From contig CAYREI010000005.1 in NCBI GenBank assembly GCA_964423285.1, positions 1-39,979 of the forward strand: 39,979 bases of DNA, read 5' to 3'. The notes below the pieces were generated by a model. The model searched no databases and had not been told where the DNA came from. It saw only the letters and a program-made list of their open reading frames with translations. Position numbers and translations under genes: made by a program. Source of the DNA: an uncultured Pseudomonadales bacterium (GTDB lineage: Bacteria; Patescibacteriota; Microgenomatia; UBA1400; PJMF01). Shown in pieces: positions 315 through 16,285 of this stretch (its first letter is position 1; each line of letters starts with the position of its first letter).

Positions 315-415
315 AAATAGGTTCCAACACCGTCCACTAGTCCCTGCAAATAGATCAAAATATATCTTTTATTATCAAATAATATTTTTTAGATTGGGTA
401 TAATATCTTTTATAT
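315..415 (+). repeat. Cassette repeat copy R1 (core 315-348, then a divergent AT-rich module with TATAAT 399-404)
   Basis: AAATAGGTTCCAACACCGTCCACTAGTCCCTGCA matches copy R3 at 33 of 34 positions. Homology is lost after CTGCA. TATAAT lies 11 nt before ATG 416. Confidence 0.85.
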
Positions 416-943
416 ATGGGAAAAATATATTTTGTTCGTCATGGAGAGAGCGAGGCAAATGTAAGGCGTACATTTGCAGGTCAGAGAAATAATTCACCAT
501 TAACTGAATTAGGTCGGCAACAAGCTGAACAAGCTGCGTTAGACTTGTTGAATCATAATTTTGAAATTGATCGAATCATTACCTCGCCACTAGCAAGATC
601 CCGCGAAACTGCCGAGATAATTGCTAAACAAGCAAAATTGAGCGTTAGGGTAGAAATCGACGAGAGAATAGCAGAGTACGACATGGGAGAGCTAACGGGA
701 ACTGCTTATCACAAGATCACTTCTGAGGAGTTAGCTGCTTCTGTGGGAGCAGAGAATCCGCATGTATTTCAAGATCGCGTGCATAATTTGCTAAATGAAC
801 TAGCGCAAAAAGAAGATAATGTATTGATAGTCAGTCATGCTGGCGTGGGTAGAATAATTGAAGTAACAAAGAAAAACCTAGACCCCAACAGTTTTTATGA
901 TCTCGCTCCATTACCAAATGCAAAAATTATTGTGATTAAGTGA
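416..943 (+). CDS. Histidine phosphatase family protein (phosphoglycerate-mutase-like)
   Basis: N-terminal YFVRHGESEAN (RHG catalytic motif), a later SHAGVGR second-His motif, and 175 aa typical of the family. It sits inside the first repeat-bounded cassette. Confidence 0.85.
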   Translation: MGKIYFVRHGESEANVRRTFAGQRNNSPLTELGRQQAEQAALDLLNHNFEIDRIITSPLARSRETAEIIAKQAKLSVRVEIDERIAEYDMGELTGTAYHKITSEELAASVGAENPHVFQDRVHNLLNELAQKEDNVLIVSHAGVGRIIEVTKKNLDPNSFYDLAPLPNAKIIVIK

Positions 944-957
944 GTTAAACTTTGAGC

Positions 958-1016
958 AATAGGTTTCAACATCGTCTACGCACCTCTGCAGCGATATATT
1001 TTGATATAATGAAATT
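958..1016 (+). repeat. Cassette repeat copy R2 (short form)
   Basis: AATAGGTTTCAACATCGTCTACGCACCTCTGCAGCGATATATTTTGATATAAT. The core is recognisable with ACTAGT replaced by ACGCAC. It ends in an extended -10, TGATATAAT (1002-1010), 6 nt before GTG 1017. Confidence 0.8.
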
Positions 1017-1382
1017 GTGTTTAGACTTAATTCTGAATGGTATTTACCCAAACTAGCCCCTGACATTGCCGTTGATAAAAATGGTGAGATATTTGAGTTA
1101 TTGCGCAATCTCCAAATCTTCGCTTATTTTATGGTTAGGTATGCATCCAGTCATATTCCTAAAGATCATAAATCACACGACTCATATACGGGTAAAGACC
1201 TAATTAATCCAAAGACTAATAAACATTTTACAATTGATTACTTAGTTAATAATAAAACTTTAGTGTTAAGTCCTGAGAATTTAGATAAATTAAAAAATGG
1301 GTCTACAGCTGGAATAGAAGGCAGAGAATACATTGTTGCTTTAGTTACAATTGCTTTATATAAAGAATTGTATTTAAACTGA
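1017..1382 (+). CDS. Hypothetical protein (121 aa), cassette 2
   Basis: ORF with a GTG start 6 nt after an extended -10, which looks leaderless. No domain recognised. The stop TGA abuts the next repeat copy. Confidence 0.5.
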   Translation: MFRLNSEWYLPKLAPDIAVDKNGEIFELLRNLQIFAYFMVRYASSHIPKDHKSHDSYTGKDLINPKTNKHFTIDYLVNNKTLVLSPENLDKLKNGSTAGIEGREYIVALVTIALYKELYLN

Positions 1383-1466
1383 AATAGGTTCCAACATCGT
1401 CCACTAGTCCCTGCAGCGATATAGTTTGATATATATTGATAAAACTCAATTAAATTTGTAGAATGT
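1382..1466 (+). repeat. Cassette repeat copy R3 (full core plus promoter)
   Basis: AAATAGGTTCCAACATCGTCCACTAGTCCCTGCAGCGATATAGTTTGATATATATTGATA, followed by TTGATA (1436-1441), a 17-nt spacer and TAGAAT (1459-1464). Confidence 0.9.
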
Positions 1467-2066
1467 ATGAGTTATAAATTTTCTAAAGTTAGAAATGAAT
1501 TTATGTCAGGTATAAAAGTTGGACATGAGGCAGGTCAAATTCCTCCAGAAGATGCCTGGACCTTACGGAAACTAGGTGTTGTTCCTGACAGCAATGGAGA
1601 TTATAAAGAATTTTTGTTACGAATTTATTTTTGGAAACAACAATATTTACATGACTTAGCACAGAATGATAGTGATATTAGTCAGTCAGAAATTGATAAT
1701 TTGCTGCTAACGCTATATAGATTGCCAGAATTAGCTTCAGTATTCATTCAATCAATGAATAATCAAGAAAAAATTCCATTTTATAGAAATGGACAAGATC
1801 CTAGAATTTTCAATGGAATATATTTCGGAAGAGGGGATGGGGATCATGAACTAACTTTGTCTACTCGTGCCTTTAATGCACTTTTGAGAGGCAAGCTCGT
1901 GGTAGAAGTGAATGGTTTTATGCATGCCGAAGATTTAGCAAAACTATCTCTAATAGAATTAGAGTCTGCTAGAACTATCGGTCCAAAAACAATTGAAGTG
2001 TTAGAGTCTTTTTTATCAGACTTACAGAATAAACTTGGATTAGATGTAAATGAGTTAGATAAATAG
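1467..2066 (+). CDS. RNA polymerase alpha-subunit C-terminal-domain-like (helix-hairpin-helix) protein, cassette 3
   Basis: The C-terminal LTLSTRAFNALLRGKL...AEDLAKLSLIELESARTIGPKTIEVLESFLSDLQNKLGL follows the RpoA alpha-CTD pattern (LSxRxxNxL...DL...EL...GxKxxxEi...L..GL). The start is uncertain: ATG 1467 lies only 2 nt after the predicted -10, and the next in-frame ATG is 1503. The stop TAG (2064-2066) is part of repeat R4. Confidence 0.6.
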   Translation: MSYKFSKVRNEFMSGIKVGHEAGQIPPEDAWTLRKLGVVPDSNGDYKEFLLRIYFWKQQYLHDLAQNDSDISQSEIDNLLLTLYRLPELASVFIQSMNNQEKIPFYRNGQDPRIFNGIYFGRGDGDHELTLSTRAFNALLRGKLVVEVNGFMHAEDLAKLSLIELESARTIGPKTIEVLESFLSDLQNKLGLDVNELDK

Positions 2067-2184
2067 GTTCGAACATCGTCCACTAGTCCCTGCAGTGATA
2101 TAGTTTGATATATATTGATACTTTTTCAACTAAGTTTGGTATAATATTTAATTATTAACTCTATCTGAAGTTGGAGAAAGTTGT
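2061..2184 (+). repeat. Cassette repeat copy R4 (core plus promoter plus 5'UTR)
   Basis: 58 of 60 positions identical to R3 over the core, by hand count. Homology with R7 continues through the promoter, 5'UTR and SD. Confidence 0.9.
2115..2145 (+). promoter_or_regulatory. Sigma70-like promoter inside R4
   Basis: TTGATA (2115-2120), a 19-nt spacer ending in TGG, then TATAAT (2140-2145), forming an extended -10 TGgTATAAT. SD GGAG (2173-2176) lies 8 nt before ATG 2185. Confidence 0.55.
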
Positions 2185-2475
2185 ATGAGTAAAAAAGAGA
2201 CACTTAAATTAAATCCAAATCCAAATCAATACACTCCTGAAGAAGAAGCTTATTTGAGAAGAATGGCAAAAATACTTCCGCCACGCTATGGAATAGGTAA
2301 AGATAAGAGTAATAATAACATCGTGCTTTTTTATTTGAGTGAGATTGTAAAAACATATCCCGAGAATGTTACCGAAGAAGAGATTCTTGAATACATACAG
2401 GAACATCAAGCAAAACTGATAGAATCAGGTGATGACTTCATGTATGGTGAGAGTACTCCACCCCCAGGCTATTAA
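2185..2475 (+). CDS. Hypothetical protein (96 aa), cassette 4
   Basis: ORF preceded by the repeat-borne promoter and a GGAG SD. No domain recognised. Confidence 0.6.
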   Translation: MSKKETLKLNPNPNQYTPEEEAYLRRMAKILPPRYGIGKDKSNNNIVLFYLSEIVKTYPENVTEEEILEYIQEHQAKLIESGDDFMYGESTPPPGY

Positions 2476-2518
2476 CGCCTTTAAACAGTATTTGTCAGGT
2501 TATCGCATCCCACAATCC

Positions 2519-2544
2519 AGGTTCCAACACCGTCCACTAGTCCA
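2519..2544 (+). repeat. Cassette repeat copy R5 (truncated: left core only)
   Basis: AGGTTCCAACACCGTCCACTAGTCC is identical to the R1 core variant (ACACCG). Homology stops after ACTAGTCC, and there is no GATATA or promoter module. Confidence 0.8.
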
Positions 2545-2648
2545 CTCGTGCCATATTTCAAATAAATAAAAAAGTTTCAAATCAGTCACTATTTTAAAAT
2601 GATCCTTACTCATCATTTAAATTTAAGTCTAGAAGATTGGTCAAACTA

Positions 2649-2819
2649 TTATTTTAGCTTATCTTTTTTCCTGATTTTTTGAATTATTTTTCTATTTTTT
2701 GGTAAAATCAACATCTTTTCTAGTTTTCCCAGTAATATTATGCAGATAGTCTTATTATCATAGACCCCATCATCTCCTTCATCTTCTGGCGGTTTTGAAT
2801 GTTTAATTTCATTGTTCAT
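2649..2819 (-). CDS. Hypothetical small protein (56 aa), the only reverse-oriented ORF in the array
   Basis: Own translation: MNNEIKHSKPPEDEGDDGVYDNKTICIILLGKLEKMLILPKNRKIIQKIRKKDKLK, then TAA. It falls below the 60-aa cutoff of the ORF track. The minus strand has TGTATAAT about 10 nt upstream of the ATG. No SD was seen. Confidence 0.35.
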   Translation of the reverse strand: MNNEIKHSKPPEDEGDDGVYDNKTICIILLGKLEKMLILPKNRKIIQKIRKKDKLK

Positions 2820-2847
2820 TTAATTGTATTATACAAAATAAGTGGAG

Positions 2848-2957
2848 TAGGTTCTAACTACCACCCATTAATCCTTGTAATGATATAGTTTGATATATAT
2901 TGATAGAATTCTGTTATAATATAATACATCTTTTACAAATTAAAAAATTGGAGATTT
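2848..2957 (+). repeat. Cassette repeat copy R6 (decayed core, intact GATATA/promoter module)
   Basis: TAGGTTCTAAC, then a diverged middle, then GATATAGTTTGATATATATTGATA identical to R3, R4 and R7. TATAAT motifs lie at about 2915-2925, and SD GGAG precedes ATG 2958. Confidence 0.85.
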
Positions 2958-3200
2958 ATGACAAATAAAGAAGTATATAAATTAGCAGAGGACCCAAATT
3001 ATCAAGCTTTTGAAAAGATGGAAAAAAGTGGTAAATTTGATGGTTACAAACCAGGTACTTGGATTGCAATTTTAAATGGGCTTGTATTTGCCTCAAATAT
3101 TGATAAAAATAAGTTGTCCAAAATAATATCTAGAGAGACAGATGAGACAGATGAGTCTTGTTTTATTGAACAAGTTAACATTGAGAAAAAAGATATATAA
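2958..3200 (+). CDS. Hypothetical protein (80 aa), cassette 6 first ORF
   Basis: ORF with SD (TTGGAGATTT ATG) behind the repeat promoter. No confident domain call. Confidence 0.55.
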   Translation: MTNKEVYKLAEDPNYQAFEKMEKSGKFDGYKPGTWIAILNGLVFASNIDKNKLSKIISRETDETDESCFIEQVNIEKKDI

Positions 3201-3249
3201 ATGGACTGAGCTTATTTGGGAATGGATAGCGTGAGCTAAATAAATTAAT

Positions 3250-3537
3250 TTGAAAGAACCTATGTTTGAAGAAAACGAATACCCTGTTAAAAAAGAAAGA
3301 GTAGTGAGGAGACCTCTCAATGAAGGGGAAATAGAAGCAGAGATTGAGCGTCTTTCTAATGGGGTATTTAAGTCTATATCAGATGGTCCATGGGTTGAGT
3401 CTGTAGATGAGGACAGAGAAGTAACTACCTTTTCTTACCGAGGAATTAATTTGCCTGGATATACTTTTGAACTTTCATGGAAAGAAGTCCAAGGTTCTTC
3501 TTTAGAAAAGAATGAGGAAATGTCTCCATTACCATAA
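3250..3537 (+). CDS. Hypothetical protein (95 aa), cassette 6 second ORF
   Basis: ORF with a TTG start at 3250 and an alternative ATG at 3262. It has no repeat copy upstream. The last codons (SPLP, stop) lie in sequence shared with the end of ORF 3670-3864. Confidence 0.5.
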   Translation: MKEPMFEENEYPVKKERVVRRPLNEGEIEAEIERLSNGVFKSISDGPWVESVDEDREVTTFSYRGINLPGYTFELSWKEVQGSSLEKNEEMSPLP

Positions 3538-3547
3538 TAAAAAACGA

Positions 3548-3669
3548 AAATAGGTTCTAACATCGTCCACTAGTCCCTGTAGCGATATAGTTTGATATAT
3601 ATTGACACTTTTATTGTCTAGTTTGGTAGAATATATTAATTACTAATTCTATTTAGAATTGGAGGAAGA
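3548..3669 (+). repeat. Cassette repeat copy R7 (core plus promoter plus 5'UTR)
   Basis: 57 of 60 positions identical to R3 over the core, by hand count. Upstream homology with R8 extends back to 3524 (CTCCATTACCATAATAA). Confidence 0.9.
3602..3632 (+). promoter_or_regulatory. Sigma70-like promoter inside R7
   Basis: TTGACA (3602-3607), a 19-nt spacer ending in TGG, then TAGAAT (3627-3632). SD GGAGG lies just before ATG 3670. Confidence 0.55.
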
Positions 3670-3864
3670 ATGAGTTTTAAATCCCCAGAGGGTTATAAAA
3701 GCGATAAAAGTATTGAAGAGACGGGAGGTCCTTTCTTTTGGAAAGGAAAAATTATTAAGTTTTTAAAAAATTGTGGTGTTGATGAAAAAGTTATTGTAGC
3801 TATTTTATGCCCAAAAGAAGATTCAAAAGAGAAAAAAGATGGACCTTGTCCACCATTACCATAA
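3670..3864 (+). CDS. Hypothetical protein (64 aa), cassette 7
   Basis: ORF with a strong SD behind the R7 promoter. It ends PPLP, stop, within sequence shared with ORF 3250-3537. Confidence 0.55.
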   Translation: MSFKSPEGYKSDKSIEETGGPFFWKGKIIKFLKNCGVDEKVIVAILCPKEDSKEKKDGPCPPLP

Positions 3865-3873
3865 TAAGAAGCG

Positions 3874-3989
3874 AAAATAGGTTTCAACACCATTCGCTTA
3901 TTTTATTTGATATAAGTTTTAAATTTTCTGGTATACTTCTTTTTTCGTTTATTTATTAAATTTAAACATTTTTTATTAAAGGAGTTGAT
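3874..3989 (+). repeat. Cassette repeat copy R8 (degenerate)
   Basis: AAAATAGGTTTCAACACC, then a shortened middle, then TTTGATATAAG and TGGTATACT (extended -10-like). SD AGGAG precedes GTG 3990. Confidence 0.65.
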
Positions 3990-4893: not shown

Positions 4894-6000
4894 CTAAATA
4901 GGAATAGCAACAGTGAATGTTGTTCCTTTTTTAATTGCGCTATTACAACTAATAGTTCCTTTAAAAATATTTTCAATAGTATTTTTAGTTATTGTTAATC
5001 CTAACCCAATGCCCATATTCGGATTTTTAGTTGTGTACATTGGTTCAAAGATTTTTTGTTTATTTTTAGTAGAAATTCCTGCTCCAAAATCTTGTATTTT
5101 TAATACTAATTTTTTTTGATTTTTACTAAAATTAATAATAATTTGTCGATTCTGTTTTCTCTCAATCTGATAGTAAGAATCTATGGAATTTGATATTAAA
5201 TTTATTATAACTTGAGCAAATTTATTAGCTGGTCCTAATATTAGACTAGAATCAAGCTCTCGGATTATTATGTCAACATGATTTATATCTGCTTTTGGAG
5301 ACATAATTCGGATCGCTTGTTTAATATATTTAGCTGGAGAAAATTTTATTATTTGATTTTGATTGCTTAATTGTAGCTGGGTAGAATTGATGAATTTTCC
5401 AATGAATTGGATATTTTCAAAAGCAAGCTTAATTTTTTTTAATTTTGATTTCGACAAATCCCTATTATTGTAAAGCTGCTCTAGGTTTAAAGAGGCACTA
5501 GTTAATGGATTTTTAATATCGTGAAAGATTTCAATCGCAGATCGACCAACTTCAACAAATTGCTGCCACTGCATCATTTTTTCTATTTGAGCTAATCGAA
5601 TTTGCCTAGTTTGTTTTTTAACTCTTTTTTTAAGTAGTCTTTTTTCTTTTTCTAATAATTTTTCTGATAGTATTACTTTTTCTAATACTTTATGAAGTTT
5701 GCGGTTATATAGCCAGCTAACTAGAAAAATAACAAATATAGATATGGAGACTGTGATTGCATTAAATATATCTTCATTTTCAACCCTCCAACTATTGTCT
5801 ACAGGTAGCAAGGCTTGATGTTGAAGATGAGTCAAACTAATTAAAAATAAGCTGGTAAATAAAGTAATAATTAAAGCTGTTCCAACTAAATATAAGCCTC
5901 CTGTTAATAAGACATGGAAAATTTGTCTTTTTTTATAATCTACAACTTTTTTAACTATCGAGGAACCTGATTCGCTAAAAAAATTATTTATTTTATTCAT
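4894..6000 (-). CDS. Sensor histidine kinase
   Basis: Two N-terminal TM segments, an H-box (EIFHDIKNPLTSA), an N-box (INLISNSIDS), G-boxes (QDFGAGI, GIGLGL). The stop lies 4 nt from the response-regulator gene. Confidence 0.9.
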   Translation of the reverse strand: MNKINNFFSESGSSIVKKVVDYKKRQIFHVLLTGGLYLVGTALIITLFTSLFLISLTHLQHQALLPVDNSWRVENEDIFNAITVSISIFVIFLVSWLYNRKLHKVLEKVILSEKLLEKEKRLLKKRVKKQTRQIRLAQIEKMMQWQQFVEVGRSAIEIFHDIKNPLTSASLNLEQLYNNRDLSKSKLKKIKLAFENIQFIGKFINSTQLQLSNQNQIIKFSPAKYIKQAIRIMSPKADINHVDIIIRELDSSLILGPANKFAQVIINLISNSIDSYYQIERKQNRQIIINFSKNQKKLVLKIQDFGAGISTKNKQKIFEPMYTTKNPNMGIGLGLTITKNTIENIFKGTISCNSAIKKGTTFTVAIPI

Positions 6001-6003
6001 TTT

Positions 6004-6690
6004 TTAACTAGCTTTATCAGATTTGTCGTCGCAAAGTTTATATCCTATCCCATGAACTGTTTTGATAATATTATTATCAGAGATATTTTTAATTTTTTTT
6101 CTGATGTTAAAAATATGAACATCGATTGCATTACTATTAAAATTTTTTTCACCTTCCCACACATGTTCTAATAGTCTTAATCTAGAGATAGGAGTATTTT
6201 TATAATGCGCTAAATATTGAAGTATTAGATATTCTTTTTTGGAAAATTTAAGAATTTTACCTTCATAAAATATATTTTTAGTATTCAAATTTATTGATAA
6301 TTTTCCGATAGTTATAATATTATTTTTAATATTTAGGCTCCTTCTTAACAACGATCTAATCCTTGCTTTAAGTTCAATTAGATTAAAAGGTTTAATAACA
6401 TAATCATCGGCGCCTGTATTCAAAAGACTAACTTTACTATTAATCGAATCTTCCCCAGTGAGAATTAATATTGGCGTTGTTAAACCTTCTCTTCTTAATT
6501 CTTCACAGACTTCTGCTCCATTTATATCGGGCAATTTAAGATCTAGTAATATTAGGTCGTATTCATTAGTTATTGCTTCGTAAATACCTTTTTTTCCAGT
6601 TAAGGCTATATCTGTAACGTAGCCTTGAGATAAGCAGTTTTGCAAAGATTTAGCTAGAGATTTATTATCTTCAATTACTAAAATTTTCAT
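6004..6690 (-). CDS. OmpR/PhoB-family response regulator
   Basis: Receiver domain (MKILVIEDN..., DLILLDLKLPD, KPF) plus a C-terminal winged-helix Trans_reg_C region (LSKKEYLILQYL..., VHGIGYKL). Confidence 0.95.
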   Translation of the reverse strand: MKILVIEDNKSLAKSLQNCLSQGYVTDIALTGKKGIYEAITNEYDLILLDLKLPDINGAEVCEELRREGLTTPILILTGEDSINSKVSLLNTGADDYVIKPFNLIELKARIRSLLRRSLNIKNNIITIGKLSINLNTKNIFYEGKILKFSKKEYLILQYLAHYKNTPISRLRLLEHVWEGEKNFNSNAIDVHIFNIRKKIKNISDNNIIKTVHGIGYKLCDDKSDKAS

Positions 6691-6784
6691 AAAAAACTCA
6701 AATCAGTATATCAGTATTTTATTAAAAAAATATTAATTTTCTATCTTCATCATCCTCTCCTAGTTTTCCGCTATACTATTTTCA

Positions 6785-7383
6785 ATGCCCGCAAGGTTTT
6801 CCTCCCGTCAGAATCTTCCCACTTCGCCTGGTATGTTTAGTACTCTTGGTCCATCATTTATCCTTTTAGGTCTAGCTCTTGGCTAAATTCTTAGTTTTTT
6901 GGCCAGGGTGTAAATTCTGGCTTGAGTTTTCTTCATATTGAGTCTGCAGCTATTGCTAGTCACACCACACCTCTAATTGGCACCTTTTTCTTACTAGTAG
7001 CTGCATTAATGCTGTTTTCTACCCAAATGGGGATTCTGGAGTCATCATCACGGATTATCTCGGAAAATGTGGTTCTTTTATTCTATAAAAATGGCAGGAA
7101 GTTTAACTTGAGCCTAGGGTTCTATCTTGCTCTCTGGGCACAAATTTTACTCGGCATCTTCATCTATTTTTCGGGTTTTCGTGAGCCGCGCTTCTTGTTA
7201 ACTTTGGGTGCGGTTTTAAACGCCGCGGCCATGATGGTTTCCTTGCCATTACTATTTTTATTAAACAGAAAGAAACTCCCCAAGGTTTATCAGCCAAATT
7301 TGATTCGCAAATTCATTATGTTAATTGTGTTTTTATTTTTTGTGGGGTTTGCGGTGATAATATTACGAGACTTTAAGATTTAG
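6785..7383 (+). pseudogene. Nramp-like divalent-metal transporter remnant (frameshifted, internally deleted)
   Basis: ATG 6785 opens MPARFSSRQNLPTSPGMFSTLGPSFILLGLALG, then a stop at 6884-6886. This resembles the Nramp N-terminal TM1 region. Another frame then reads AKFLVFWPG. ORF 6922-7383 (TTG start) looks like the last 4-5 TM helices only. The total is about 200 aa, versus more than 400 aa for intact family members. Confidence 0.5.
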
Positions 7384-7430
7384 CACGTTTTTTACACCTC
7401 CAGTAATCATTGGAGTAGTAATGTGGGTAA

Positions 7431-7664
7431 ATGAGAAGAACCACAATCATTGTTCATCCCGATGTTGAAAAATTTATTAACTCTTTAGACAAACCTACTT
7501 TTTCTAAAGTTTTACGCTCTTTAGATTTGCTTGAAAACTTTGGTTACAGATTAGAGATGCCTCACAGTAAAAAGATTATTCTTTTGCACGGTTTTATTAA
7601 AAAAAAGCAGAAAATTCCTGCTAAGGAAATTAAAAAAGCTCAAATTAAACTTGAATTAATATAA
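7431..7664 (+). CDS. RelE/HigB (Gp49-like) toxin homolog with an apparent internal in-frame deletion
   Basis: The N-terminal part (VEKFINSLDKPTFSKVLRSLDLLENFGYRLEMPHSKKI) joins directly to the family C-terminal motif (ILLHGFIKKKQKIPAKEIKKA). The usual intervening core of about 30 aa (LxELRI...RIFY) is absent. The protein is 77 aa versus about 105-115 typical. Confidence 0.6.
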   Translation: MRRTTIIVHPDVEKFINSLDKPTFSKVLRSLDLLENFGYRLEMPHSKKIILLHGFIKKKQKIPAKEIKKAQIKLELI

Positions 7665-7686
7665 CGTATATGTTATATTTCGTTTT

Positions 7687-7959
7687 ATGAAAGATTACCA
7701 ACAATTTAAAAAAGAGGCTCTAAAAGATAAGGAAATTAAGTTAGCTTATGAAGATTTGGCTTCAGAATATAAATTAATTGAGTCTTTGATTGAAAAACGT
7801 TTAAAACAAGGCATGACTCAGCGTGAGTTAGCATTAAAAATTGGTACCAAACAATCTGCGATTTCACGCCTAGAATCAGGAAATTATAATCCCTCTTTAG
7901 TTTTTTTACATAAGGTAGCCAGCGGTCTTGGTGCTAAGTTAAAATTTCATTTTGATTAA
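7687..7959 (+). CDS. XRE-family HTH antitoxin (HigA-like)
   Basis: MTQRELALKIGTKQSAISRLESGNYNPSLVFLHKVASGLGAKL is a canonical Cro/C1 HTH. It lies directly downstream of the toxin homolog. Confidence 0.85.
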   Translation: MKDYQQFKKEALKDKEIKLAYEDLASEYKLIESLIEKRLKQGMTQRELALKIGTKQSAISRLESGNYNPSLVFLHKVASGLGAKLKFHFD

Positions 7960-7961
7960 AT

Positions 7962-9482
7962 ATGACGATAGATAAAAAATTTCTACTTAAACTTAGTTTA
8001 CTCGGATTTTTTGGTGTTATTGTTTTTCTTTTTGGCCTTAATAAGATTAATCTCATTACAGCCGATATTGGTCGCCATTTAATTAACGGCAAACTTCTAG
8101 AAGAACAAAGTATTTTAGTTTCCACCAATCACTATTCTTACACTATGCAGGATCAACTAGTGACCAATCATCACTGGTTATCTGGAGTTATCTTTTATTT
8201 TATTTTTCAACTAGCTGGTTTTAATGGCCTATCAATATTTTATGCTGCATTATTAACTATTGCTTTTATTTTCTTTTTTTTGATCGGCAAAAGCCATTCT
8301 GGCTGGTGGCCACTAATTTTAACCACCGTTTTATCTTTACCACTCATTGGCTTACGCTCTGAAGTCAGACCAGAGGTGTTTAGCTTAATTTTTCTAGGTC
8401 TAGAGATTTGGTTACTCCTGCCCATTTTAGAAAAAAAGCAGCTTAAGTGGTGGGTGTGGTTGACCTTTGGTTTCATTCAAATTTTGTGGGTTAATCTTCA
8501 TCTCTTCTTTTTTTTAAGTTGGGGAGTAGTAGGGGCGATGTTGATTCAGCAGTTATTACAAAAAAATAAAGTTGCAACAAAGTTTTTAGTTATCTTATTG
8601 GGGATAGTGGTGAGTGCGAGTTTTATTAACCCCTTTGGTTATAAAGGTGTGATTGAGCCCTTTTTTATCTTTCAAAATTTTGGTTACCAACTAGCTGAAA
8701 ATCAAACTCTATCTTTTATGATTGAGCGTTTTGGTACTTTAAGATATTGGCATGGATTAGGTGCAGTTATTTTGGGTCTAGGAACTAGTAGTTATTTGAT
8801 TTGGCGCCACCGTTTTCAATATTTATTTGCAGCTTTATTGTTAATCTCTTTCTCAGTTTTTGCTTTCAGTATGAATCGGTTTGTCCCTATGCTGGGATTA
8901 ATGTTAGTTGGTTTTGGTTCATGGGCAGTGGGGGAATGGTTGAGTAAAAACGAGATTTTAGAAAAGAGTCTCGCTCCATTTTTTTCAGTTTTTTTATTAT
9001 TAGTTTTTATTAGCACTAAAAGTTATTTATCACCTCTTAACCATGGTCTTGGAGTTGGATTACTACCCACAGTAGAAGATTCAGCTCGGTTTTTTAAACA
9101 GTACAATCTATCAGGGCCAATCTTTAATAATTATGATCTAGGCGGTTATTTAATTTATCAGTTTTTTCCCAACCAAAGAGTTTATGTCGATAATCGACCA
9201 GAGGCTTACTCCACAGAGTTTTTTTCTAAATACATTGCCGCTCAGGAAGATGAGGTAGTCTGGCAACAGTTAGACCAAGAGCACAGCTTTGAAACTATTT
9301 TCTTTTATCGCCATGACTTTACTCCTTGGGCACAACCATTTTTAATAAAAAGAATTCAAGATGAAATTTGGATCCCAGTGTATGTGGATGATTTTGTGTT
9401 AATTTTAGTCAAAGATGATGAACAAAACCAACCAATTATTGAAGAATTTCAGCTTCCTCCAGAAGTTTTTATGATTAATTAA
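7962..9482 (+). CDS. Large polytopic membrane protein, possibly a GT-C-type glycosyltransferase
   Basis: 506 aa with about 11-13 hydrophobic helices followed by a soluble C-terminal domain of about 130 aa. The functional assignment rests on architecture only. Confidence 0.6.
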   Translation: MTIDKKFLLKLSLLGFFGVIVFLFGLNKINLITADIGRHLINGKLLEEQSILVSTNHYSYTMQDQLVTNHHWLSGVIFYFIFQLAGFNGLSIFYAALLTIAFIFFFLIGKSHSGWWPLILTTVLSLPLIGLRSEVRPEVFSLIFLGLEIWLLLPILEKKQLKWWVWLTFGFIQILWVNLHLFFFLSWGVVGAMLIQQLLQKNKVATKFLVILLGIVVSASFINPFGYKGVIEPFFIFQNFGYQLAENQTLSFMIERFGTLRYWHGLGAVILGLGTSSYLIWRHRFQYLFAALLLISFSVFAFSMNRFVPMLGLMLVGFGSWAVGEWLSKNEILEKSLAPFFSVFLLLVFISTKSYLSPLNHGLGVGLLPTVEDSARFFKQYNLSGPIFNNYDLGGYLIYQFFPNQRVYVDNRPEAYSTEFFSKYIAAQEDEVVWQQLDQEHSFETIFFYRHDFTPWAQPFLIKRIQDEIWIPVYVDDFVLILVKDDEQNQPIIEEFQLPPEVFMIN

Positions 9483-15637: not shown

Positions 15638-16285
15638 ATGACTGCCCCAGACCCCATTTCTAAACCAACCCCACAGGACGATAATTCTTATGTAGATAGT
15701 TATCGACCTCCAGCTAAAGATACTACTCCGATCACTCCAGTTGCGCCAGTAATTCCAACTCCTCCAGTTACTCCAGCTGCACCAGTAACTCCAACTCCTC
15801 CGGTTGTACCAATCACATCAGCTCCTCCAGTGGCTCCAGCCTCAACTAAAGAGTCTGGGTCGTTGCAAGATCAAAATATTTTTTATCTTTTAGGTGTAGA
15901 TGATGGCACTGATGAGGAAAAAGAGTCATTTTTAGATGAGCTTCAACAAGTAATCTGGGAAGATTTTATTGAAAGTGATGTTAAAGCATTAATTTCAGAG
16001 GAAGAGATGACCCAATTGCGTCAAATAATGGCTAAAGGTGATGGTCAGGATGTTCAAGAAGAGATGGTGGTCTATTTAGAAAAATTAATTCCTGATTTAG
16101 AAGATATCATGATGGAAAAAGCTTTAGAGCTTAAAGAAGAGATGATGTGGGAGCGTATTAATGGCATGCGTGAATACTATTCGGGTAAGCCAGAATTCTT
16201 AGCCAAATTAGATGAAGCTGAACAATTAGTTAAAAAAGACCATTGGCATCAAGCCATCGAGATATTAAACGCCATCGGTCAATAA
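15638..16285 (+). CDS. Hypothetical protein with a Pro/Thr/Val-rich N-terminal region and an acidic helical C-terminal domain
   Basis: 215-aa ORF containing a PVTP-type repeat. It lies upstream of the mreB-like gene. Confidence 0.65.
   Translation: MTAPDPISKPTPQDDNSYVDSYRPPAKDTTPITPVAPVIPTPPVTPAAPVTPTPPVVPITSAPPVAPASTKESGSLQDQNIFYLLGVDDGTDEEKESFLDELQQVIWEDFIESDVKALISEEEMTQLRQIMAKGDGQDVQEEMVVYLEKLIPDLEDIMMEKALELKEEMMWERINGMREYYSGKPEFLAKLDEAEQLVKKDHWHQAIEILNAIGQ
15734..15805 (+). repeat. 2 x 36-bp in-frame tandem duplication
   Basis: ACTCCAGTTGCGCCAGTAATTCCAACTCCTCCAGTT followed by ACTCCAGCTGCACCAGTAACTCCAACTCCTCCGGTT, encoding TPVAPVIPTPPV / TPAAPVTPTPPV. Confidence 0.85.

Follow-up and report, generated by a model that had tools for sequence, protein, structure and literature searches.

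A 34-nt repeat block punctuates the first 4.3 kb of a contig from an uncultured member of the Patescibacteriota (CAYREI010000005.1 of GenBank assembly GCA_964423285.1). We analyzed a stretch of 39,979 nt, which we will call the window. Eight copies of the block separate nine small open reading frames (ORFs) in this region. We tentatively propose that the block is the junction repeat, or core, of an array of cassettes, each with a single gene, that occupies a fixed position on a Paceibacterota-like Patescibacteria chromosome, and that this array is integron-like but mechanistically distinct. The content of such arrays varies between strains, a cassette has been gained or lost precisely between two cores, an ORF and its core have moved together between arrays, and 19 nt of the core are nearly invariant across the phylum. 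The cores would then be the substrate for recombination. A first-pass annotation, made from the letters of the window alone, had drawn attention to one copy of the block and likened it to a recombinase crossover site.

All eight copies (R1 to R8) are on the + strand, within positions 315-3897, and their AGGTT motifs begin at 319, 961, 1386, 2065, 2519, 2849, 3552, and 3879. Positions within the repeat are numbered relative to this AGGTT, and the two central bases of GTT-NN-AAC are positions 6-7. A pattern search detected 7 of the copies, a repeat finder detected 6, and a profile search detected all 8. The pattern search gave 9 matches where 0.72 were expected by chance, and none of the shuffled sequences reached 9. 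In the profile search of the 40 kb, there was no copy outside of these eight, which span 3.6 kb:

293-314, + strand: leader-like flank of R1 (GAAAACCTCTTTACTAAAAAAG), common to four strains
315-348, + strand: R1, the head copy of the core repeat (nhmmer, 47.4 bits); strain homology stops at its 3' edge
957-990, + strand: R2, with GCAC replacing TAGT (24.2 bits)
1382-1415, + strand: R3, the copy addressed by the first-pass annotation (nhmmer, 50.8 bits)
2061-2094, + strand: R4 (48.7 bits)
2494-2542, + strand: R5, with a longer 5' flank (CAGGTTATCGCATCCCACAATCC) and a degenerate 3' part (31.7 bits)
2845-2878, + strand: R6, the most diverged copy, which follows a reversed cassette (8.9 bits; 12 mismatches)
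3548-3581, + strand: R7 (46.8 bits)
3875-3897, + strand: R8, the last copy, truncated and degenerate (11.2 bits)

Just before R5 (2464-2518, + strand), the CCAGGCTATTAAC at the end of the ORF at 2185-2475 is imperfectly repeated as CAGGTTATCGCATCCCACAATCC. Another locus, L128 (we will use our own numbers for loci), has the same type of arrangement, which suggests a possible partial duplication of the long type of 5' flank.

To define the repeat, we drew on the window and on 28 related loci, which together gave 71 unique copies; the search pattern had played no part in selecting 38 of these. The conserved unit (60-71 unique copies) runs from -4 to +30, or 34 nt, and reads AAAT-AGGTTCNAACAYCGTCCAC-TAGTCCCTGCA. 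Conservation collapses on either side of it. Around the NN, conservation is asymmetric, as it extends for ~10 nt leftward and for ~23 nt rightward.

A comparison of strains shows that rearrangements have their boundary at the block. A metagenome scan, with a pattern that left the NN free, found 26 loci with the same repeat subfamily. Many of these are arrays, such as L141 (8 copies in 5.8 kb) and L121 (7 copies). Three loci (L125, L135, and L140) share a sample series with contigs that carry the window's own gene order. These three share with the window the FtsX gene that precedes the array, a 26-nt leader, and R1, with 91-93% identity up to window position 348. At +30/+31 of the repeat, they diverge completely into three unrelated continuations. 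Cassettes also recur in differing orders and with differing neighbors in L040, L121, L127, L129, and L134. L137 contains a 688-nt cassette between 44-nt direct repeats of a diverged core variant, while L126 has a single copy of the repeat and no cassette; on either side of the cassette, these two loci are 95-99.7% identical. Similarly, L121 and L129 are unrelated up to a core, and downstream of that core they share 99.8% identity.

We also found that a gene and its core travel together. One of the cassette genes in the window encodes a 199-amino-acid protein, and a database search with this protein found only three relatives. In L152 and L153, homologs of this ORF are directly followed by a core. 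The homolog in L152 (76% identity) retains the promoter module together with a core of its own that has the TAGTTCCTGC extension and whose TAG is the stop codon. The resident cores of the L152 array have a different extension, TACGGGGAGC. Because the homolog's own core lies among different resident cores, we conclude that the ORF, the promoter, and the 3' core move together between arrays. The annotation's suggestion of a recombination site is thus correct insofar as the block is where rearrangements start and stop, as seen in the strains, the 688-nt cassette, and the shuffled arrays. The specific proposal of a serine-recombinase crossover at GTT-NN-AAC is not supported, as discussed below.

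Given these observations, each cassette would have the form of a promoter module, a small ORF, and the 34-nt core, and the core would travel with its ORF. The genes of the array and its flanks are:

1-275, + strand: 3' end of an FtsX-like ABC permease gene (Pfam FtsX, E = 1.8e-16), the conserved flank that heads the array
416-943, + strand: cassette gene 1, from the histidine phosphatase family (Pfam His_Phos_1, E = 5e-35)
1017-1382, + strand: cassette gene 2, an orphan of 121 amino acids whose stop codon is 3 nt before the R3 core
1416-1464, + strand: promoter module of the next cassette (GCGATATAGTTTGATATATATTGATA ... TAGAAT), with TTGATA-17-TAGAAT matching at 10/12 positions; conserved together with the cassette homolog in L152
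1467-2066, + strand: cassette gene 3, the orphan of 199 amino acids, whose stop codon is the TAG of R4
2185-2475, + strand: cassette gene 4, an orphan of 96 amino acids; L128 has a homologous cassette
2649-2819, - strand: possible reversed cassette gene of 56 amino acids, in a segment that is 78% identical to L130 and L144
2958-3537, + strand: cassette genes 5 and 6, orphans of 80 and 95 amino acids
3670-3864, + strand: cassette gene 7, an orphan of 64 amino acids
3990-4229, + strand: the last small gene of the array (79 amino acids), with no core after it
4894-6690, - strand: histidine kinase and OmpR-type response regulator at the far end of the array (Pfam; synteny)

The gene order around cassette gene 1 is found in 4 other assemblies as well. 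Other than the histidine phosphatase, the cassette proteins have no match in Pfam, PHROGs, or PADLOC. By eye, the C-terminal part of the 199-amino-acid protein (...TRAFNALLRG...IGPKTIEVLESFL...) resembles the helix-hairpin-helix of the C-terminal domain of RNA polymerase alpha; Pfam gives no match there.

The core is closely tied to the gene upstream of it: it begins 0-4 nt after the stop codon or provides the stop itself. In 41 of 49 unique intervals (41:8), the longest ORF points in the same direction as the core, despite the cassettes having their own promoters. In 10 of these 41 ORFs the stop codon is the core's own TAG, and in 11 more it lies 0-4 nt before the core (21/41). What follows +30 is either a promoter module (GCGATATAGTTTGATATATATTGATA and then a -10 element) or an intrinsic-terminator-like hairpin and then a promoter. 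The promoter module is directly after the core in 24 of 66 copies and is absent from the other 42; the copies without it that we read directly have the intrinsic-terminator-like hairpin after the core. Within the window's array, there are no terminators between cassettes on the + strand, and therefore the cores would be transcribed. Also, degeneracy tends to be greater in cores whose preceding ORF is distant or reversed (p = 0.04, pooled).

All of this would be consistent with our main rival explanation, which is that the core is an RNA element at the 3' ends of mRNAs or between cistrons. Here, read-through transcripts would be bound or processed in a sequence-specific manner, and thereby punctuated, stabilized, or terminated. 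A factor that is conserved across the Patescibacteria would recognize it, the single-copy units that we describe below would be small RNAs with the same site, and the variability of the arrays would have some other cause. This explanation accounts for the coupling to stop codons and for the orientation bias better than a cassette array does. It does not account for the boundary behavior, as it gives no reason for strains to lose homology precisely at the core. Also, several cores that lie behind reversed genes are perfectly conserved. Nor do the array copies fold: the 66-nt repeat has z = +0.75 as RNA and z = +0.67 as bottom-strand DNA, which agrees with the annotation's remark that it forms no strong hairpin. 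Across 168 copies, a closing helix around the core is barely enriched (12.5% versus 8.1% in a shuffled null) and is clear in a minority of copies (L036, L031, L034, L035, L038, L039, and L111). Finally, in the window and 27 related loci, Rfam has no match at the core at the gathering threshold or even at E ≤ 10, which also rejects any known ribozyme or RNA family. Overall, we view the RNA element as possible but rather doubtful. The two explanations are not exclusive.

In L140 (1790-1912), L125, L127 (7440-7600), and L138, we noticed a GC-rich element of ~120 nt (...GCACCTGGGTAATGCATGCGA...) that lies between the core with its terminator and the next promoter, and that ends in CCTGCAG. Its folding is not significant (z about -1), and it is absent from the window.

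If the core is a junction, then where within it does exchange occur? The annotation had proposed that the NN at the center of GTT-NN-AAC is hypervariable, and had likened this to a recombinase crossover site, noting the 2-bp overlap of serine recombinases. It had listed the dinucleotides of R1 to R8 correctly (CC, TC, CC, CG, CC, CT, CT, and TC). But with ~70 copies, the hypervariable center vanishes. The first N is C in 87-93% of copies, and in 87% of the 38 unselected copies. Among these 38, the major allele at the second N has a frequency of 0.76, as compared to 0.55 at position 12, 0.66 at position 13, 0.68 at position 17, 0.71 at positions 22/23, and 0.74 at position 16. In the larger alignment, the NN is essentially no more variable than its flanks, because positions 12, 13, 16, 17, and 22/23 vary as much as the second N or more. 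Position 7 accepts C, G, or T, and never A, while most other sites vary mainly by transitions.

The palindromes fare similarly. ACTAGT and CTGCAG are indeed present in R3, R4, and R7, but they are not maintained across the larger set of copies. In a covariation test, changes on one side dominate over compensated changes (11:1 at positions 19/22, 11:0 at 18/23, and 34:5 at 26/31), and the palindromes are not under selection. At the last base of CTGCAG, A is almost as frequent as G (CTGCAA). The ACGCAC of R2, which had been read as a destroyed palindrome, is a recurrent block allele in the larger sample. The interrupted inverted repeat CAACATCG...CGAT(ATA)GTT does exist, but it requires the promoter module and is thus confined to 24 of the 66 copies. 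We conclude that GTT-NN-AAC, ACTAGT, and CTGCAG are incidental features of the consensus, and that the second N is merely one tolerant position.

To locate exchange points, we examined mutual information between positions across 66 unique copies. These copies are still related by descent, so the linkage is only indicative and is not a formal test. One block comprises positions 0, 7, 12, 13, 16, 17, and 23 (within 0-23), and the other comprises positions 27-29 together with the type of downstream module. Linkage breaks at +24 to +27. This break agrees with the divergence of the strains at +30/+31 and with the junction immediately before CCTGCAG in L125 and L140. The event that distinguishes L126 from L137 places the exchange to the left of position 21, in a span that includes the NN, and the sole difference between the cores of L121 and L129 is at position 13. 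The few points of exchange that could be mapped therefore lie at different places, and positions 6-7 are not singled out by any of them. As judged from these alignments, exchange points seem to map to the core, and mostly to its 3' edge (between TAGTCC and CTGCA), rather than to the NN.

We therefore consider it very unlikely that GTT-NN-AAC is a recombinase crossover with the NN as its overlap. The repeat is a rearrangement junction, as this model predicts, and the one mapped gain or loss of a cassette is compatible with it. Also, a large serine recombinase gene lies directly beside a single-copy unit that contains the core in L111 (1935-3467), and related genes lie 2.7-5 kb from such units in L107 (7005-7997) and L037 (2883-3317). 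However, the overlap dinucleotide of a crossover must be identical in partner sites, so the differences in NN between neighboring copies argue against this role. Only the second N varies, and not unusually so; position 7 is linked to positions 12 and 23, while linkage breaks at +24 to +27. The arms are only 3 bp long, and there is no conserved left half-site. Serine integrases leave few shared base pairs (the attL/attR structure), not direct repeats of 34 bp. Finally, none of the window's ORFs of at least 110 amino acids contains a recombinase domain (integrase, transposase, or resolvase).

Instead, we suggest that cassettes would be gained, lost, and exchanged by recombination with the cores as the shared sequence. 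The agent might be a sequence-specific recombinase that is encoded elsewhere, or it might be RecA, which would use 35-65 bp of portable homology once DNA has been taken up. The invariance of 19 nt of the core across the phylum and the strictly direct orientation of the copies favor a sequence-specific enzyme. The non-coincident exchange points and the lack of a local recombinase favor RecA-dependent exchange. (DprA and RecR are both encoded in the window.)

Several observations weigh against the junction-repeat interpretation. The core resembles no characterized recombinase site, as it has neither dyad symmetry nor a fold. Besides the lack of recombinase domains in the window, recombinases are not enriched near the core over ~60 loci. 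The non-coincident exchange points (left of position 21, or +24 to +30) fit homologous recombination better than site-specific recombination. An RNA 3'-end element would equally be expected to show the tight link to the stop codon and to gene orientation, and the frequent terminator immediately behind the core. And in L057, the first core follows an ORF for the C-terminal part of GMP synthase, which resembles a housekeeping flank gene.

The position of the core upstream of promoters raises another alternative: it could be a DNA operator or UP-like element of the following promoter, such as a site for the neighboring OmpR-type regulator, which would co-regulate the cassettes. In the window, the core lies ~15-20 bp upstream of the -35 hexamer. 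The core can be read as containing three GT(T)CC repeats, at positions 3, 14, and 22, the first two of which are 11 bp apart. Furthermore, the histidine kinase and the OmpR-type regulator are syntenic with the arrays in L040 and L134 as well as in the window, and L151 has an OmpR-type regulator gene in the same place. But this synteny may merely be inherited, instead of reflecting a regulatory link, and the same core is found in many lineages and loci without this regulator. Most copies (42/66) lack the promoter module, and where these were read, a terminator separates the core from the next promoter. The core is tied to the upstream stop codon and is not at a fixed distance from the downstream promoter. 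We consider the operator to be an improbable explanation.

Among known systems, the array can be compared to chromosomal integrons, whose attC sites include the Vibrio cholerae repeats, and to clusters of attC sites lacking an integrase (CALINs). Both are fixed arrays in which the cassettes are small, co-oriented, and mostly orphan, with one gene each. In either case, a repeat lies behind each ORF, in contact with the stop codon, and moves with the ORF; the repeats are highly similar within an array; and the content differs between strains downstream of a conserved head. If the array were a classical integron or a CALIN, then the repeat would be an attC site. The folding and length tests effectively rule this out, and we give it hardly any weight. 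attC sites are hairpins of 55-140 nt that are conserved in structure only, while the repeat is 34 nt long, forms no hairpin on either strand, and is conserved in sequence across the superphylum. It has no R''/R' boxes, that is, no inverse pair of core sites, and on reading its sequence, RYYYAAC...GTTRRRY is absent. Integron cassettes are mostly promoterless, while these cassettes each have a promoter. At its head, the array has the FtsX permease gene and no attI, and there is no IntI or Phage_integrase domain in the window's ORFs of at least 110 amino acids (which covers 275 nt upstream of the array). In short, the array works like an integron but fails the defining tests: there is no attC fold, no IntI, and the cassettes are self-promoted.

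To see how widely the core is distributed, we scanned one genome per species with AGGTTNNAACAYCGTCCAC. Besides chance matches to coding sequences in actinomycetes, we found dozens of loci from the Candidate Phyla Radiation (CPR), including Saccharibacteria, Paceibacterota, Woesebacteria, Nealsonbacteria, Colwellbacteria, and other groups. There were also a few loci from bins of Margulisbacteria, SAR86, and DPANN. The 19-mer is essentially invariant among the CPR loci and those from other bins. Arrays are common, and other CPR lineages have them as well: L021 has at least 9 copies, L109 has 8, L036 has 6, and L057 has 5. The neighbors of CPR arrays are accessory-type genes, such as Ham1, hydrolases, methyltransferases, and DUF1189. 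The extension after CCAC depends on the lineage and is either pyrimidine-rich (TAGTCCCTGCA or TACTCCCCGC) or purine-rich (TAGGGGGAGC).

Some loci contain composite units with two cores (L021, L026:400-630, L008, L109, and L152:734-800). In these, core A with a pyrimidine-rich flank is followed by a spacer of ~12-35 nt and then by core B, whose TAGGGGGAGC flank is partly complementary to that of core A.

In 16 loci that are similar to those of Saccharibacteria, the core is instead the 3' part of a single conserved unit of ~125 nt. These loci scored 47-131 bits with a model that was built from eight of the 16:

L035, 1042-1165: ~125-nt single-copy unit; also in L038, L082, L050, L042, L034, L072, L100, and L120
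L089, L110, L076, L105, L111, L086, and L102: further loci with the ~125-nt single-copy unit

A tRNA-Ser gene often lies 0.4-3.4 kb upstream of the unit, and a hairpin often comes after the unit. The 16 units have unrelated genes downstream, often in convergent orientation, which argues against a riboswitch. We did not find the full-length unit in the window's lineage, and R1 retains only a 10-nt leader match: by eye, its leader GAAAACCTCTTTACTAAAAAAG resembles the leader GAAAAACCTCT of the units in Saccharibacteria. We also noticed by eye that small GIY-YIG nuclease-like genes adjoin the unit in L072, L086, and L105.

The ~125-nt unit may be a small RNA gene, or it may be an "empty" site with a promoter, a core, and a terminator. 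Its upstream block (RYGATAAACTTGG) can pair with the CAGGTT and ATCGT of the core, and across the 16 loci this pairing is found in 92% of cells as compared to 33-60% in slid controls. This pairing would speak for the core acting as RNA. However, the support for pairing is all one-sided because the core is invariant, and RNAalifold found no consensus structure for the 16 units, so the RNA structure of the unit is weakly supported. The same block also resembles the extended -10 element (TGGTATAAT) of the arrays.

If the unit is an RNA gene, then the arrays would resemble the attachment sites at the 3' ends of RNA genes (tRNA, transfer-messenger RNA, or small RNA), where elements that lack an integrase accumulate in tandem. 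These include the cis-mobilizable elements beside integrative and conjugative elements; a similar case is the composite islands of staphylococcal cassette chromosome at rlmH. In both, the repeats are the 3' part of a longer unit, with a sharp 5' boundary, and one copy with a longer 5' flank is accompanied by many 3'-only copies. The tRNA genes, the serine recombinase, and the GIY-YIG genes near some of the single-copy units fit this comparison too. In contrast, the cassettes here are only 0.3-0.8 kb, with one gene each, and there is no integrase in or near the arrays.

Other systems share fewer features with the array. Xer-dependent modules, such as integrative mobile elements exploiting Xer (IMEX) at dif or the pdif modules of Acinetobacter plasmids, are also small, are bounded by a short conserved site, and have no dedicated recombinase nearby. 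By analogy, a conserved host enzyme could explain the invariance of the core. But the core lacks palindromic arms and the 11-6-11 architecture of the 28-bp dif site, its copies are direct instead of alternating, and there is no switch in GC skew. Attachment sites of large serine recombinases are imperfect dyads of 40-50 bp with an identical dinucleotide, while the core has 3-bp arms and a dinucleotide that differs between adjacent copies, and of ~60 loci only L111 has an adjacent recombinase gene. In the Sma/Cla repeat of Neisseria pilin genes, and in the orphan toxin/immunity modules of contact-dependent inhibition and Rhs systems, a short conserved sequence that is common to otherwise unrelated modules provides portable homology for RecA-dependent exchange in bacteria with natural competence, as might be the case here. 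Whereas such repeats are confined to a single gene family or a single expressed locus, the cassettes here are unrelated and independently expressed. Finally, repetitive extragenic palindromic (REP) sequences and the mosaic elements that they form (BIMEs) are also ~35 nt long, follow stop codons closely, and form part of transcribed 3' untranslated regions. But REPs are palindromic, genome-wide, and species-specific, while the core is non-palindromic, clustered, and conserved across the phylum.

The genomes of CPR bacteria are tiny, and these organisms live on other cells and are believed to rely on taking up DNA. As far as we know, it is largely unclear how they obtain and shuffle accessory genes, and classical integrons have rarely been reported in them. 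A more ambitious version of the junction-repeat proposal is that CPR bacteria have a novel cassette system, in which single self-promoted genes are captured, stacked, and exchanged via an unstructured element of 19-34 nt and a dedicated enzyme that recognizes it across the phylum. This enzyme may be a recombinase or may be guided by a nucleic acid. We would call this version speculative. Such a system would be a functional counterpart of the integron, working by sequence instead of by attC structure. Searches of the literature by sequence and by topic found no mention of the repeat or of such arrays in CPR bacteria; like the negative results with Rfam and with phage and plasmid collections, this holds for the resources searched and does not prove novelty.

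An element that hardly changes from Saccharibacteria to Paceibacterota and that marks the boundaries of strain-variable cassettes would give a direct handle on gene flux. The core would serve as a probe to pull arrays of accessory genes out of metagenomes, and as bait for the protein or RNA that recognizes it. If it acts as RNA, it would be among the most conserved signals known at the 3' ends of bacterial mRNAs.

We considered and rejected several other identities for the core. It is not a fragment of a tRNA or tmRNA: ARAGORN and Rfam found nothing at the core, and the T-loop-like GGTTCNAAC has no matching stem. A coding or leader-peptide role is contradicted by in-frame stops that interrupt the micro-ORF (MKNLSxVVIQ) in L042 and L050, and a read-through tag at the TAG is contradicted by only 10 of 41 ORFs being in frame with it. 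A phage or plasmid attP site is not indicated either, as IMG/VR gave 2 unrelated matches of high GC content and INPHARED and PLSDB gave none. All-versus-all clustering and Pfam scans of the flanking ORFs identified no shared family, so there is no recurrent neighbor protein. It is not a dif site, given its architecture; GC skew is positive in all 2-kb bins of the window but one (6001-8000), with no lasting switch at the array. Its 3' extension is G-rich in many lineages, unlike a Rho-utilization site. There is no pair of hexamers with consistent spacing, as would be expected for the promoter of an extracytoplasmic function sigma factor. And a motif search for a trans-acting RNA in the window that might pair with the core gave no more matches than expected by chance.

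Outside of the array, the window is an ordinary Patescibacteria chromosome. Besides DprA and RecR, it encodes a formyltransferase, a deformylase, MreBC, PBP2, TopA, NadE, ThyA, Dut, DHFR, CysS, RadC, and YchF. At 7431-7959 (+ strand), a small Gp49-like (HigB-type) ORF is followed by an HTH_3 protein, and this looks like a toxin-antitoxin pair. At 15722-15793 (+ strand), two tandem copies of a 36-nt sequence (81% identical) lie within the ORF at 15638-16285, which has no match in Pfam.

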